A DNA stretch of 64,000 nucleotides from Candidatus Latescibacterota bacterium (GCA_965221775.1 CBDCSU010000005.1:64001-128000); one strand, 5' to 3'; shown: positions 54,947-64,000, numbered from the stretch's first letter. Program-made: numbers and translations. Notes: a model not told the origin generated them from the sequence alone.

Positions 54947-55888
54947 TCAGTGGTAATGGAGGATGGGACGGATGGCGGCCTCCACCTCGGCGGCCACCTC
55001 CGGCGGCACCCGCGGGTTGAAGGGTCCCCCCTCGCCGCCCTCGATGTCGTCGAAGCCCCCCAGGTGCATCGCCTCGACGACGGCGGAGTAGTTGTAGCGG
55101 CGGTCGTCGCGGAAGCGGATCTCCTCCAGCGGCGCCAGCTCCTCCTCGACCTTCCGGGCCCGCTCGTAGTCGCCGCGGCGCTGGGCGTTGTTGATCTCGT
55201 CCGAGGCCCTGGCGAAGACCACGTTGATCCCCGAGGTGTGGCCCCGGGCCCCCTGCTGCGCCGGTCCCGTGCTGCGGTCGCCGATCCCCCAGATGACGAT
55301 GCCGGCGCCGTCCCGGACCCCTTCGACCATGGGTCTCACGTCGTCGGGGCGGGTGCCGATCTTGACCCCCAGGAAGTGGGGCGAGTCGTTCACCAGGCGC
55401 AGGGCCGTGGGTGCCTGGTTGGACTGGCGCAGGTAGTAGAGGAAGCGGGCTCCGTGCTCGCCTCCGAGCCGCTCGGCGAGGGCCATGTAGCCGTGGTAGA
55501 TGCCCTCCGGGTCGGCCACGCCGGTCAGGGGCATGATCAGGTACGCGTCGGGCGGGTTGGCAAGGCGGCACTGGGCGGCGATGAGCCGCTCGGCGTCGGC
55601 CTGCGGGTTGGGCGCCACGCCGGAGATGAAGATCCCCCGGCCGGCCACGCGGGCAGCGGTGAACTCCATCAGGTTCAACTGCTCGTCCGTGTCGATGTGG
55701 TGGACGAGGCTGGTGCCGGCGATGGAGACCACCCGCGCGCGGTCCCCCTCCAGGGCCTTGGTGCCGAGGAGGTACTCGATGTTCTTCCCGTGGGCCTCGT
55801 AGTCGATCCGCCCGCCCTTGAAGGGGACGATGGGTATGGAGATGACGGTGTCGAGGGCGTCGATCAGATCCTCGGTGCTCAGGGGCAT
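54947..55888 (-). CDS. DHDPS/NAL-family lyase (KdgD-like, divergent)
   Basis: SIPIVPF, IDY, IAGTS, LYYLR, LGVKIG (Schiff-base Lys), GARGHTSG. Confidence 0.75.
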   Translation of the reverse strand: MPLSTEDLIDALDTVISIPIVPFKGGRIDYEAHGKNIEYLLGTKALEGDRARVVSIAGTSLVHHIDTDEQLNLMEFTAARVAGRGIFISGVAPNPQADAERLIAAQCRLANPPDAYLIMPLTGVADPEGIYHGYMALAERLGGEHGARFLYYLRQSNQAPTALRLVNDSPHFLGVKIGTRPDDVRPMVEGVRDGAGIVIWGIGDRSTGPAQQGARGHTSGINVVFARASDEINNAQRRGDYERARKVEEELAPLEEIRFRDDRRYNYSAVVEAMHLGGFDDIEGGEGGPFNPRVPPEVAAEVEAAIRPILHYH

Positions 55889-55962
55889 GCAGGGCTCCGG
55901 TGGTTGAGTGTGGCGTTGCTCTGGCGGGTGCGGTAGAGAGTACGGAGGCCCGTCGACGGCCG

Positions 55963-57063
55963 TCAACGATCCACGCCGAAGGGGGACATCTCCCGGCCCG
56001 GGTCGCCGGTGGTGATCCACCGGGCCAGGACCCGCCCCGTGAGGGGCCCCATGAGGACGCCGTTCCTGTAGTGGCCGGTGGCCGCCCACAGGCCCTCGGC
56101 GCCGGCCACGGGGCCGATGAGAGGGCGCCCCCGGGGGGGCTTGGGGCGCAGGCCGGCGCGCTGTTGGCGCAGGACCGGGGGGCGGGCGAGAACCCGCCCG
56201 CACAGGGCCGACAGCTCCTGCCCCGCCGCCGGTGTGGTGCGGGCGTCGAAGCCGGTCTCCTCGACGGTGCCGCCGACGAGCAGGCCTCCCGGGGCCGGCA
56301 GCACGTGCCCACCGGAGCAGCGCAGCACGTGGCGCACGGGACCGCCGGCGAAGAGACAGCTCTGACCCCTCACCGGACGCACCCGCAGCCGCCCCGCCTC
56401 GGGGCCGCCGACGTCCGCGGACCAGGATCCGGCGGCGATCACCGCGGCATCGAAGGTGGCTCGCCTCGAACCGCCGCCCTCGTGCAGGTCGCACTCCACC
56501 CCGCCGGGCGCCGGGCGCAGGCCGCCGACGGCGACGCCGAAGCGGAACCGGGCGCCCCGGCCCTCGGCGGCCCTCTGCAGGACCGATGCCAGAGTCGGCG
56601 GGTCGACCCGCTGATCGCCGGGGTAGAAGGCGGCCCCCGCAACGGCCTCCGACAGGGCGGGCTCCGCCTCCCGCAGCTGGCCCTCGTCGAGCCACTCCCC
56701 CCGGACGCCGCGGGACCGGTTCTCCTCCAGGCGTGAGCGCAGCGCCTCGGCCTCCCCGCCGTCGAGAGCCAGGTCCAGTCCGCCCAGGGGCCGCCAGCCC
56801 GCATCCAGGCCGGTCTCCGCGCGCAACTGCTCGCTCAGCCTCTCGTGCAGGGAGTGGGCGTCGCGATAGAAGGAGGACAACGGATCCTGCCCCCCGGTGG
56901 GCCGGGTGAGGACCCCCAGGGAGGCCCGGGTCGTGGCGGAAGGCGAGGGATCGCGGTCGGCGACGACGACCGAGACGCCCGAACGGGAGAGATAGTAGGC
57001 GACGGAGCGGCCGACGATGCCGGCGCCGGCCACCAGGACGCGGGCTCGGTCCCCGGCGCTCAC
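55963..57063 (-). CDS. FAD-dependent oxidoreductase, DAO/glycine oxidase (ThiO-like) family
   Basis: VAGAGIVG, IAAGSWS, PVRGQ, GGTVEETGF, AGLRP, ATGHYRNGVL. Confidence 0.85.
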   Translation of the reverse strand: MSAGDRARVLVAGAGIVGRSVAYYLSRSGVSVVVADRDPSPSATTRASLGVLTRPTGGQDPLSSFYRDAHSLHERLSEQLRAETGLDAGWRPLGGLDLALDGGEAEALRSRLEENRSRGVRGEWLDEGQLREAEPALSEAVAGAAFYPGDQRVDPPTLASVLQRAAEGRGARFRFGVAVGGLRPAPGGVECDLHEGGGSRRATFDAAVIAAGSWSADVGGPEAGRLRVRPVRGQSCLFAGGPVRHVLRCSGGHVLPAPGGLLVGGTVEETGFDARTTPAAGQELSALCGRVLARPPVLRQQRAGLRPKPPRGRPLIGPVAGAEGLWAATGHYRNGVLMGPLTGRVLARWITTGDPGREMSPFGVDR

Positions 57064-62921: not shown

Positions 62922-62972
62922 GCGTCCTCGGCTGCCGCCTCAGGCAAAGAGAGTAGCTCGATTGCGCACTTC

Positions 62973-64000
62973 TCAGGTGATGCGGAAGTAGTCCACCAGG
63001 GCGCAGCGGCGGCGGCGGGTGAAGGTGCGGGCCGTGGTCAGGCCCTCGCCGGTGGGACCGGCGATGGAGTAGGTGGAGAACCCTTCGCCGCCGACACCGA
63101 GACCAGCGTAGGAAGGTCCGTTCTTGACGAAGACGGTGGTGTCCACGGCGCGCGCCATGTTGTGCATGCTCTCCACGTTCCGTGAATGGATCACGGCCGT
63201 GTGCCGGTAGCCGTGCTCGGACTCCACGGCGGCGCGGATGCCCTCGTTCACGTCGCCCACGCGGACGATGGGCAGGAACGTCATCATCTGCTCCACCCTG
63301 ACGAAGGGATGGTCGCCGCCGGTCTCGCCGATGAGCAGCCGCACCCGGTCGTCGAGATCGAGGCCGATGGCCCGGCCCAGAACGTTGGCATTGCGGCCGA
63401 TGAACTCGCGCTCGGGGTGAGACTGCCCGTCCCCGCCCCGGGGGAGGGCGGCCCGGGTCAGGGCCTCCACCTGACCCGCGTCGAGCTCGACGGCGCTGTA
63501 GGCGACCATCTCCGCCTTGAGGTCATCGGCCACGTCGTCGACGACGAAGCACTGCTTCTCGCCGATGCAGAGGATGTTGTTGTCGAAAGCGGCGCCGTCG
63601 ACGATGTCGCGCGCGGCCTTGCGGATGTCCGCGGTCTCGTCGACGACGACGGGGGGATTCCCGGGGCCGGCGACGATCGACTTCTTGGGGCTGGCGAGGG
63701 CGGCCCGGGCCACGGCAGCCCCGCCGGTGACGAGGATGACCCGGACCCCCCGATGGTTGAACAGCTCTCCGGCGCTCTCGATCGTCGGCTCGGCGATGCA
63801 GGAGATCAGGCTCTCCGGCCCTCCGGCGGCGGTGATGGCGTCGTTGAGCAGCTGCACGGAGTGGGCTGAAACCCCCTTGGCCCCGGGGTGGGGGTTGAAG
63901 ACGACGGAGTTGCCCGCGGCGATGATGCCGATGGCGTTGTTCACCAGGGTCGGCACGGGATGGGTGGAAGGGGTGACGGCGCAGAAGACGCCGTACGGCG
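62973..64000 (-). CDS. CoA-acylating aldehyde dehydrogenase (EutE/PduP family), 5' end outside the window
   Basis: PYGVFCAVTPSTHP, FNPHP, VTGG, AGPGNPPVVVDETAD, FDNNILCIGEK, EQMM, HTAVIHS, IAGPTGEG. Confidence 0.93.
   Translation of the reverse strand, partial: PYGVFCAVTPSTHPVPTLVNNAIGIIAAGNSVVFNPHPGAKGVSAHSVQLLNDAITAAGGPESLISCIAEPTIESAGELFNHRGVRVILVTGGAAVARAALASPKKSIVAGPGNPPVVVDETADIRKAARDIVDGAAFDNNILCIGEKQCFVVDDVADDLKAEMVAYSAVELDAGQVEALTRAALPRGGDGQSHPEREFIGRNANVLGRAIGLDLDDRVRLLIGETGGDHPFVRVEQMMTFLPIVRVGDVNEGIRAAVESEHGYRHTAVIHSRNVESMHNMARAVDTTVFVKNGPSYAGLGVGGEGFSTYSIAGPTGEGLTTARTFTRRRRCALVDYFRIT

Follow-up and report, generated by a model that had tools for sequence, protein, structure and literature searches.

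The window analysed here (the whole stretch of 64,000 nucleotides) ends in a co-directional run of genes on the minus strand, confirmed with Pfam, which reads AldDh, BMC-P, PduL, 6-Cys protein, BMC-T_b, BMC4x, DHDPS-1, DAO and DHDPS-2. Genes were called from open reading frames and third-position GC, and the start codons are predicted. The features, in the order in which the operon is read, are:

62973..64000, minus strand: AldDh, acylating aldehyde dehydrogenase, 3' 341 codons (PF00171)
61564..62972, no strand: insertion of 1,409 bp, GC 0.59 against about 0.70 in the flanks
61740..62921, minus strand: ORF393, 393 aa, within the insertion (no Pfam or NCBIfam family)
61246-61563, minus strand: BMC-P, pentamer vertex protein, fourth copy in the locus (PF03319, 8.8e-22)
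60502-61239, minus strand: PduL-type phosphotransacylase (PF06130, 6e-65, residues 41-213)
60016-60498, minus strand: 6-Cys protein, Cys-rich (no family)
59433-60011, minus strand: BMC-T_b, tandem two-domain shell protein (PF00936, two stretches)
58282-59433, minus strand: BMC4x, linear fusion of four BMC domains, 383 aa (PF00936, four stretches, 9.7e-61)
57082-58269, minus strand: DHDPS-1, class I (Schiff-base) pyruvate-aldolase-like enzyme (PF00701, 2e-60)
55963-57063, minus strand: DAO, glycine-oxidase-like FAD enzyme (PF01266, 7e-64)
54947-55888, minus strand: DHDPS-2, strongly divergent member of the DHDPS family, last gene of the run (PF00701, 4e-10)

Every gene that an earlier note had named in this run was verified by Pfam on the minus strand, and its description as a metabolosome operon with an AldDh and PduL core is borne out by the PF00171 and PF06130 matches. 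The full AldDh gene encodes 474 aa (L001 8973-10397, reaching window-equivalent position 64397) and scores 638 bits against NCBIfam PRK15398 (cut-off 403); PduL scores 222 bits against PRK15070 (cut-off 209). The amphipathic stretch and subsequent Ser/Gly/Ala-rich linker at the N-terminus of AldDh, as well as the approximately 40 additional N-terminal residues of PduL, are read as putative encapsulation peptides. For BMC-P the TTG start at 61575 given earlier was replaced by an ATG at 61563, the start also used in four close relatives; the protein shares 57% identity with the first member of a BMC-P triplet upstream. The start of BMC4x overlaps the stop of BMC-T_b, and BMC-T_b comes before the quadruple fusion in each of the 48 related loci that could be tested (in L024 the fusion appears as two split matches).

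The insertion, and with it ORF393, was overlooked in the earlier note. It sits precisely between the stop codon of AldDh and the ATG of BMC-P and is missing in all four close relatives (L016-L019), where the two genes are spaced by 3 nt. In DNA run X5 a contig joint that skips the insertion (depth 5.1) occurs alongside contigs that cover it (depth 8.35), and the skipping joint is also seen in RNA-library run X18. The insertion is strain-specific and polymorphic. Flanking repeats were looked for at its borders and none were found. ORF393 has a signal-peptide-like N-terminus, and its approximately 115 N-terminal aa have three paralogues in the genome; the atlas assigns it to Gemmatimonadota clusters at 0.98, and small exact contigs of RNA libraries X19 and X20 map onto it. 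It is not a BMC component.

The 6-Cys protein, analysed through an alignment of 28 orthologues, consists of an N-domain (residues 1-52), a linker, a Cys-rich middle part with an invariant EEFGSG and a C-terminal amphipathic helix. Its AlphaFold model gives pLDDT values of about 95 for the N-domain and about 88 for the C-terminal helix (136-159). Neither a Pfam family nor a clear solved fold was matched by the N-domain, which recurs at the N-terminus of DHDPS-1 (BLASTP: 33% over 64 aa, E 1e-6).

Taken as a feature set, these genes identify the type of the locus. The genome is of Gemmatimonadota type, and positions 58282-64000 (minus strand) cover the 3' two-thirds of its main locus for a MUF2-type metabolosome. 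This type was catalogued by Sutter, Melnicki, Schulz, Woyke and Kerfeld (2021, Nat Commun 12:3809; PMC8217296) with its function unsolved, and all of the gene and domain features listed for it in Supplementary file 4 of PMC8217296 are found here. AldDh (pfam00171) and the PTAC PduL (pfam06130) stand in the main locus, each single-copy in the genome, as is the class II aldolase (tblastn or HMM). Three adjacent PF03319 genes form a BMC-P triplet (L001 11242-12088), and the fourth copy lies in the window. Linear fusions of BMC-H domains are present as two-domain (192 aa and 185 aa) and four-domain (383 aa) proteins, the catalogue itself remarking on "very unusual quadruple linear fusions" (PMC8217296). 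A satellite BMC-H of 160 aa with a C-terminal extension is found on G000:C6 (L015 5657-6139) with no other BMC gene nearby. The 6-Cys protein has the C-terminal peptide, the approximately 60 aa with six conserved Cys and the N-domain common to the nearby pfam00701 aldolase. In total the shell set comprises the BMC-P triplet plus one BMC-P, one BMC-H, two BMC-T, the four-domain BMC fusion and two satellite BMC-H. The locus is thus a further member of a described type and not a new type, an outcome that the earlier note had itself put forward, together with a standard signature enzyme upstream, as counting against its reading of the operon.

The earlier note had also pointed out that no B12 enzyme, glycyl-radical enzyme or class II aldolase is visible, and this holds for the window as well as for the 5' part of the operon, where Pfam finds only the BMC-P triplet, a BMC-T, a BMC-H and IspH. 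A standard signature enzyme does exist, since a class II aldolase is present elsewhere in the genome. It is the sole PF00596 match (C4:409643-410170) and lies in a satellite locus approximately 0.9 kb from a BMC-H gene (C4:411161-411388), with one membrane-protein gene in between. Its C-terminus consists of a linker and an amphipathic tail. A tail of the same kind is seen in two class-B genomes (main loci L108 and L109) but is missing in the 67%-identical orthologues of two BMC-free genomes (G103 and G105), so that the tail is present in 3/3 BMC-bearing and absent in 2/2 BMC-free genomes. In the class-B genomes the class II aldolase adjoins AldDh and BMC-P genes. The aldolase family as such occurs in 144 of the 168 genomes of the phylum, BMC-free ones included. 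Both satellite loci are on contigs other than that of the main locus, and the assembly has an estimated contamination of 7.75%; these contigs are megabase-sized with matching GC, and genomes of the same genus carry 91-97% identical aldolases.

Within the operon itself, DHDPS-1 is the class I aldolase of the MUF2 catalogue. Compared to PF00701 it has about 70 additional N-terminal residues, and in its structure model the 52-residue N-domain leads through a disordered linker into a TIM-barrel catalytic domain (approximately 72-395). K232, Y205 and S116-T117 are invariant among 37 orthologues. DHDPS-1 falls below every NCBIfam equivalog cut-off, and the genome contains 12 PF00701 matches, the top scorer being located elsewhere. 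An identity as DapA was judged on two points, the cut-off of TIGR00674 and the Arg conserved behind the YN[VI]P motif, and was rejected (158 bits against 206); Phe210, again invariant among the 37 orthologues, aligns with this Arg of the solved DapA 2yxg. N-acetylneuraminate lyase was rejected as well (NF003164: 160.9 against 281; TIGR00683: 132 against 382).

The link between DHDPS-1 and the shell genes, proposed before from this one sequence, proved very consistent: BMC4x lies immediately 5' of DHDPS-1, and the shell pair of BMC-T_b and BMC4x thus directly upstream, in all 48 testable related loci. Fifteen of the 52 loci are made up solely of BMC-T_b, BMC4x and DHDPS-1; in five genomes with such a three-gene locus that were searched, PduL is located elsewhere, and the main locus was read in two of these five. 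Moreover, of six such genomes found in two distant families, all three that were examined have a DHDPS-1 homologue (49-52% identity) that is free of the N-domain and adjoins a BMC-T gene. In one locus (L116) an enolase-superfamily dehydratase is encoded immediately upstream on the same strand, although with at least 40 enolase-superfamily paralogues in the genome such a neighbour near DHDPS-1 could be due to chance. The class-B loci, too closely related to stand for more than about one observation, have another dehydratase and a Zn-dehydrogenase within 5 kb. Cleavage of 2-keto-3-deoxy sugar acids to pyruvate plus lactaldehyde or glycolaldehyde, the first of two models in the earlier note, is plausible for DHDPS-1 only, and these dehydratase and dehydrogenase neighbours add some context. 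A Schiff-base aldolase acting on L-2-keto-3-deoxyfuconate is described in PMC11199699 as yielding pyruvate and L-lactaldehyde. Judged from sequence and gene context, DHDPS-1 is probably a second aldehyde source that cleaves such acids.

It might be argued that in this MUF2 subgroup DHDPS-1 is the real signature enzyme and suffices by itself, the class II aldolase serving general purposes in the cytosol with only a loose link to the compartment. It would fit that DHDPS-1-type genes neighbour shell genes in three separate contexts at family level, as would the wide distribution of the class II aldolase family across the phylum. Against this, the aldolase tail tracks the BMC genes and the class-B aldolase gene lies amid those for AldDh and BMC-P. 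In addition, genome G102 (L114) retains the full operon without DHDPS-1, and a class I aldolase context is given for only 5 of the 13 catalogued MUF2 loci (PMC8217296). We therefore regard a compartment served by DHDPS-1 alone as unlikely.

The last two genes present a different picture. DAO begins 18 nt past the DHDPS-1 stop, and among solved structures glycine oxidase 4ysh matches it best (2.7e-39, end-to-end alignment). It resembles ThiO in aligning end to end with solved glycine oxidases, but ThiO of thiamin synthesis was rejected since the score stays below the cut-off (TIGR02352: 191 bits against 250.8) and the genome has no true ThiG (PF05690 gives only two partial matches, at 26 and 21 bits). 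An equal ThiO score is reached by a paralogue encoded at another place in the genome. DAO keeps an Arg aligned with the GLRP motif of glycine oxidase, which we take to be the carboxylate-binding residue of that enzyme. DHDPS-2 gives only weak generic matches to NCBIfam and no specific family, while the Schiff-base lysine K176 and Y151/Y152 are invariant among 26 orthologues. Orthologues occur in 62 of the 75 genomes of its own family and in none of the 13 other families of the phylum, where a single weak match was obtained (family f4; 27%, E 4e-14).

The earlier note had doubted its own reading should these two genes lack synteny with the shell genes. In most relatives the synteny exists: DAO follows DHDPS-1 in 37 of the 52 loci, with DHDPS-2 next in 32 of these 37. 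On the other hand, the pair also stands autonomously in BMC-free genomes, and both proteins have the same length whether or not BMC genes are present. G103 and G106 share a BMC-free gene order that begins with IspH and a divergent member of the FAH family and continues with DAO, DHDPS-2, HNH and DtxR; no PF00936 domain was detected in G103, G104, G105 and G106 (92-96% complete), all four of which encode DHDPS-2. IspH, HNH and DtxR are equally syntenic with the locus. Conversely, DHDPS-2 was not found in any of the five class-B genomes. Compared to solved homologues neither protein has a terminal extension that could be a candidate encapsulation peptide, so that both features expected of BMC cargo, a peptide-like extension and restriction to BMC genomes, are lacking in DAO and DHDPS-2. 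Because the same pair stands alone in two BMC-free genomes, DAO and DHDPS-2 are probably not components of the compartment.

A second alternative would make all three enzymes members of a compartment built on class I chemistry: DAO would oxidise an amino or imino acid (for instance D-hydroxyproline), and a DHDPS-family enzyme would then generate an aldehyde (for instance 2-oxoglutarate semialdehyde, or pyruvate plus an aldehyde) to be consumed by AldDh and PduL inside the shell. The gene arrangement speaks for it. The DHDPS-1 stop and the DAO start are separated by 0-36 nt or overlap by 4-47 nt in 35 of the 36 loci in which both genes were read (the exception being a gap of 157 nt), and this tight spacing argues for co-translation and hence possibly for a common pathway, against a bystander role of the pair. 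Contigs of RNA library X18 (90-95% alike) span the BMC4x/DHDPS-1, DHDPS-1/DAO and DAO/DHDPS-2 junctions, though they prove neither transcription nor a single transcript. The conserved Arg of DAO and Schiff-base Lys of DHDPS-2 fit as well, and further pairs of DAO and DHDPS-family genes recur in the genome (e.g. L110). Nonetheless, the autonomous, length-unchanged pair in BMC-free genomes weakens this amino-acid route, the second model of the earlier note. The pair is moreover missing at 15 of the 52 DHDPS-1 loci, DHDPS-2 was not found in the five class-B genomes, DAO and DHDPS-2 carry neither targeting peptide nor N-domain, NCBIfam gives no hydroxyproline-specific family match for either, and the genome does have a peptide-tagged class II aldolase. 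Altogether this alternative appears quite improbable.

We consider it likely, with reasonable confidence, that a MUF2 main locus is present in which two aldolases feed the compartment and DAO and DHDPS-2 are bystanders. The aldehyde would be formed within the shell and oxidised by AldDh to an acyl-CoA, which PduL would convert to an acyl-phosphate while CoA is recycled. Two aldolases probably provide the aldehyde, namely the class II aldolase and DHDPS-1. The former would be targeted via its C-terminal amphipathic peptide and would cleave a ketose 1-phosphate to DHAP and an aldehyde, as in PVM. The latter would most likely cleave a 2-keto-3-deoxy(-6-deoxy) sugar acid to pyruvate and lactaldehyde or glycolaldehyde. 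DHDPS-1 has no classical peptide and may be recruited through its small N-domain, because this domain is common to the peptide-bearing 6-Cys protein and because DHDPS-1 is in constant company of BMC-T_b and BMC4x. DAO and DHDPS-2 would form a separate, older two-gene unit at the same chromosomal site, with the BMC operon just upstream and probably read through into the pair; most likely they act in a cytosolic two-step breakdown of an amino or imino acid, in which oxidation to a 2-oxo or imino acid is followed by Schiff-base chemistry.

More tentatively, BMC-T_b, BMC4x and DHDPS-1 could constitute a portable module that adds a class I aldolase entry route (non-phosphorylated 2-keto-3-deoxy sugar acids to pyruvate and lactaldehyde or glycolaldehyde) to a PVM-like metabolosome. 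The enzyme might then be recruited by docking through a new alpha/beta domain of 52 residues, in place of a classical amphipathic encapsulation peptide, and both unusual shell proteins might act as dock or substrate pore. That DHDPS-1 is instead cytosolic and acts on something that the compartment produces or takes up as a precursor, its N-domain having a regulatory or oligomerisation role, would fit the missing peptide and the lack of a Pfam family or clear solved fold for this domain, but is quite improbable given the two unusual shell genes that invariably adjoin it (48/48), the sharing of the domain with a protein that bears a peptide-like C-terminal helix and the homologues that adjoin BMC-T even without it.

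In comparison with MUF2 as catalogued, the locus agrees in all defining features: the main locus with AldDh and PduL, the satellite class II aldolase with C-terminal peptide and BMC-H, the BMC-P triplet plus one, the quadruple BMC fusion, the satellite BMC-H with C-terminal extension, the 6-Cys protein sharing its N-domain with a nearby pfam00701 class I aldolase, and the Gemmatimonadetes host. The copy described here differs in having a 1.4-kb insertion inside the operon, and the catalogue text (PMC8217296) makes no mention of DAO or of a second DHDPS-family gene. According to the catalogue the MUF2 AldDh is closest to that of PVM and similar substrates have been proposed; PVM metabolosomes occur in Planctomycetes and Verrucomicrobia and process fucose and rhamnose (PMC8217296). 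The enzyme set of class II aldolase, AldDh and PduL is the same in both, whereas the shell set and host phylum differ and the aldolase has here moved to a satellite locus. Beyond PVM, the present locus adds the class I aldolase, the 6-Cys protein and the quadruple BMC fusion.

For the gene pairing of DAO and DHDPS-2 the LhpB/LhpC D-hydroxyproline module offers a parallel, in which a DAO-family enzyme likewise adjoins a DHDPS-family enzyme. DeoC is a class I (Schiff-base) aldolase. With a DeoC-type pfam01791 aldolase in SPU metabolosomes (PMC8217296), the premise that a class I aldolase is unprecedented as a BMC signature enzyme is too strong. SPU shares with the present locus a Schiff-base aldolase that generates the BMC aldehyde, but the enzyme is DeoC and not of the DHDPS/NAL type, the substrate is deoxyribose phosphate and the aldehyde is acetaldehyde. 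FucH belongs to the DHDPS/NAL family; its primary paper is Watanabe 2020 in JBC, and the enzyme is not known to be associated with a compartment. As described in PMC11199699, FucH is the L-2-keto-3-deoxyfuconate aldolase of the non-phosphorylating L-fucose route. The resemblance is one of proposed reaction: FucH forms pyruvate and L-lactaldehyde, as proposed for DHDPS-1, and L-lactaldehyde is the very aldehyde handled by PVM-type compartments.

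The gene run from an acylating aldehyde dehydrogenase (AldDh) to DHDPS-2 was claimed in an earlier note, and every gene named there is found on the minus strand. Genes were called by combining ORFs, third-position GC and Pfam; the high GC of the window (~0.70) fills the ORF lists with spurious frames.

Genes of the operon and of the two that follow it in the same run
62973 to past the window end, minus strand: AldDh (PF00171)
61246-61563, minus strand: BMC-P (PF03319)
60502-61239, minus strand: PduL (PF06130)
60016-60498, minus strand: Cys-rich (6-Cys) protein, no family in Pfam
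59433-60011, minus strand: tandem BMC-T (BMC-T_b), two BMC domains
58282-59433, minus strand: 383-aa BMC fusion (BMC4x), four BMC domains
57082-58269, minus strand: DHDPS-1 (PF00701, 2e-60)
55963-57063, minus strand: DAO, a glycine-oxidase-like FAD enzyme (PF01266, 7e-64)
54947-55888, minus strand: DHDPS-2 (PF00701, only 4e-10)

At its 3' end the run meets a convergent HNH gene and then a DtxR-family gene, both syntenic in most relatives. Window positions 52794-54922 hold two DtxR-family regulators, one of which appears by inspection only to be fused to FeoA-like domains, and a small HNH endonuclease gene. On the other side, the 10 kb fetched upstream (L001) show 5' of AldDh a BMC-H, a tandem BMC-T and three BMC-P genes, followed by IspH/LytB and divergent queuosine genes. 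A B12 enzyme, a glycyl-radical enzyme or a class II aldolase was not found in the operon, its 5' part included. Scanning 54400-64000 yielded 0 promoter-like sites and 5 terminator-like sites against 2.2 expected, none of them at the operon gene boundaries.

One gene had been overlooked in the earlier note: a 393-aa ORF (61740-62921) between AldDh and BMC-P. It lies in an insertion of 1,409 bp (61564-62972, GC 0.59) that spans precisely the interval from the AldDh stop to the start of BMC-P; in four relatives (91-98% nucleotide identity), which lack the insertion, three bases separate the two. The ORF has a signal-peptide-like N-terminus, belongs to no family in Pfam or NCBIfam and resembles unnamed Gemmatimonadota clusters; the genome also encodes three paralogues of its N-terminal ~115 residues. 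No convincing repeats were found at the flanks. Because contigs of the DNA run X5 both skip the insertion (one contig, depth 5.1) and cover it (depth 8.35), it is polymorphic in the population. The insertion may interfere with expression of the half of the operon that lies downstream of it.

In several families of the phylum, the class I aldolase DHDPS-1 occurs as a module together with two unusual shell proteins. Our scan of genome contigs returned 55 loci, 52 of them with orthologues bearing the N-terminal domain (N-domain; 62-92% identity); these come from MAGs labelled Gemmatimonadota or Latescibacterota. BMC4x is directly upstream of DHDPS-1 in all loci with enough upstream DNA (48/48), and BMC-T_b precedes BMC4x. 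Fifteen loci (class B) are limited, within 10 kb, to BMC-T_b, BMC4x and DHDPS-1; PduL is located elsewhere in five complete class-B genomes, and the main locus was read in two of them. Across 168 genomes of the phylum, DHDPS-1 orthologues with the N-domain occur in three families (58/75, 17/22 and 2/31 genomes). Six genomes from two other families have homologues without it (49-52% identity), which adjoin a BMC-T in 3/3 of those examined. Among 37 orthologues there is no variation at the Schiff-base Lys232, Tyr205 or Ser116-Thr117.

DHDPS-1 falls under every NCBIfam equivalog cut-off. A NAL can be dismissed (score 161 against a cut-off of 281), as can DapA (158 against 206), where in addition a Phe replaces the Arg of the solved DapA. 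One relative, at locus L114 (G102:C2:2959001-2979000), keeps the whole BMC operon without DHDPS-1, and DAO comes directly after BMC4x.

The N-domain of DHDPS-1 is shared with the 6-Cys protein (33% identity over 64 residues, E 1e-6), and the structural models give both the same fold. In the model of the 6-Cys protein this is a beta-alpha-beta-alpha-beta unit (residues 1-52, pLDDT ~95), followed by a Cys-rich middle (pLDDT <50) and a C-terminal helix (~88). In an alignment of 28 orthologues the cysteine pattern is evident, the motif EEFGSG is invariant and the C-terminal helix is conserved. Comparing the model with the PDB by Foldseek yielded no match at E <= 0.001, the best Z of a wide VIA-align search (5.1) is inside the tool's stated noise range, and the best protein-atlas score (0.83) is to unnamed clusters. 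A supposed resemblance of the N-domain to the N-terminal motif of PduO-type adenosyltransferases found no support; in Pfam both N-domains gave nothing relevant at E <= 10. Complex prediction of the DHDPS-1 N-domain (residues 1-60) with BMC-T_b and BMC4x, run on our own alignments and without controls, scored 0.00, a value that speaks neither for nor against binding.

Gene context gives a weak hint that sugar acids may be the substrates of DHDPS-1. At locus L116 an enolase-superfamily dehydratase and GlcD/GlcF-like genes are just upstream of the DHDPS-1 homologue on the same strand, and class-B loci have within 5 kb a further dehydratase as well as a Zn-dehydrogenase that weakly matches glucose dehydrogenase. 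The hint is weak: class-B loci are closely related to one another, and the genome studied here has many enolase-superfamily hits of its own. Cleavage of L-2-keto-3-deoxyfuconate to pyruvate and L-lactaldehyde by a Schiff-base aldolase is described in PMC11199699. In single-query tblastn against this genome (G000), the enolase superfamily (MR_MLE) accounts for at least 40 hits and a large DUF6785-type membrane protein for at least 20, an abundance that suggests an unusually broad sugar-acid catabolic repertoire.

DAO aligns over its whole length with glycine oxidases of known structure (4ysh, 2.7e-39). It is not the thiamin enzyme ThiO: it scores under the ThiO cut-off, the genome is without a true ThiG and a paralogue scores equally. 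DHDPS-2 is very divergent, with Lys176 and Tyr151/152 kept in 26/26 aligned orthologues. A functional link of this pair to the compartment appears unlikely to us. Position speaks for it: DAO follows DHDPS-1 in 37/52 loci and DHDPS-2 follows DAO in 32/37, and DHDPS-1 and DAO (36 loci with both read) mostly overlap or lie 0 to +36 nt apart, with a single gap of 157 nt. The pair is syntenic with the shell genes in most relatives, but IspH, HNH and DtxR are equally syntenic, and DAO is also present in BMC-free genomes. Contigs of the RNA-library run X18 (90-95% relative) bridge the junctions, though contigs of this kind are evidence neither of transcription nor of one common transcript; in runs X19 and X20 parts of the stretch are without cover.

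DHDPS-2 orthologues are confined to one family (62/75 genomes), nine genomes of which have DHDPS-2 with the DHDPS-1 orthologue absent at E <= 1e-60. DHDPS-2 was not found in five class-B genomes, and in G102, where DHDPS-1 is missing from an otherwise whole operon, DAO is still in place. PF00936 BMC domains are absent from G103, G104, G105 and G106 (92-96% complete), and the site in G103 and G106 runs from IspH through a divergent FAH-family gene to DAO, DHDPS-2, HNH and DtxR, with no BMC gene. Neither DAO nor DHDPS-2 has a terminal extension. Given these findings and the equal synteny of the neighbours, DAO and DHDPS-2 are probably an autonomous pair beside which the BMC operon sits, that is, bystanders.

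In the BMC-free relatives at L113 (11377-12177) and L115 (7348-8151), the IspH-DAO interval holds a 266-aa FAH-family gene in opposite orientation in place of the whole BMC operon. A second, divergently transcribed pair of DAO and DHDPS-family genes is located at ~1,193.6-1,201 kb of G000:C5 (L110 4674-11876), adjoining an OpuAC-type binding protein and hydantoinase/oxoprolinase A and B subunits; the region may represent a distinct cluster for the breakdown of amino acids or betaine.

The genome has exactly one class II aldolase (PF00596), on contig C4, ~0.9 kb from a BMC-H with one membrane-protein gene between them. This satellite locus (L014 6451-8484) reads BMC-H, a 299-aa membrane protein of no family, and the aldolase, whose C-terminus consists of a Pro/Gly/Glu-rich linker and an amphipathic tail. 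In class-B genomes the aldolase is located among AldDh and BMC-P genes.

Class II aldolases and PF00936 BMC domains
This genome: BMC domains present; linker and tail
Class-B genomes (main loci L108, L109): BMC domains present; ~50% identity; linker and the same kind of tail
G103 and G105: no BMC domains; 67% identity; no tail, ending soon after the catalytic domain

Since the tail is found in 3/3 BMC-bearing and 0/2 BMC-free genomes of this orthologue comparison, it co-varies with the compartment. This is comparative evidence that the satellite class II aldolase is compartment cargo.

Gene content, domain architecture, patterns of co-occurrence and conserved catalytic residues are what is observed; from them we infer the following steps. 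The aldehyde would be made inside the shell by the class II aldolase and probably also by DHDPS-1, which its N-domain would recruit. AldDh would oxidise the aldehyde to an acyl-CoA, and PduL would convert this to an acyl-phosphate.

Full-text literature searches that combined microcompartments with DHDPS terms gave nothing relevant, and MUF2 with microcompartment returned only the catalogue of Sutter et al. 2021 (PMC8217296) and its preprint. MUF2 is a catalogued metabolosome type with no substrate assigned to it, which makes every constraint on its chemistry valuable; the enzyme question is narrowed here to two aldolases and one aldehyde dehydrogenase, with DAO and DHDPS-2 taken off as misleading candidates. 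Supplementary file 4 of the catalogue gives 13 MUF2 loci, mainly Gemmatimonadetes. For five it describes a protein with six conserved Cys and a C-terminal peptide, whose N-domain is common to a nearby pfam00701 class I aldolase. The MUF2 shell has a BMC-P triplet plus another copy and double and 'very unusual quadruple' BMC-H fusions, and a satellite locus has a lone BMC-H with a C-terminal extension; the main text groups MUF2 with those types that have no obvious signature enzyme (PMC8217296). The present genome has 11 BMC-domain matches, among them, on contig C6, a BMC-H of 160 aa that carries a C-terminal extension. The earlier interpretation is supported in part. A metabolosome operon without the usual signature enzyme in the operon stands; the pair DAO and DHDPS-2 drops out as probable bystanders, and the catalogue already includes this type and its class I aldolase (PMC8217296). 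Every feature listed for MUF2 is present here, the AldDh phylogeny aside, and the locus is an MUF2-type BMC rather than a new kind of system.
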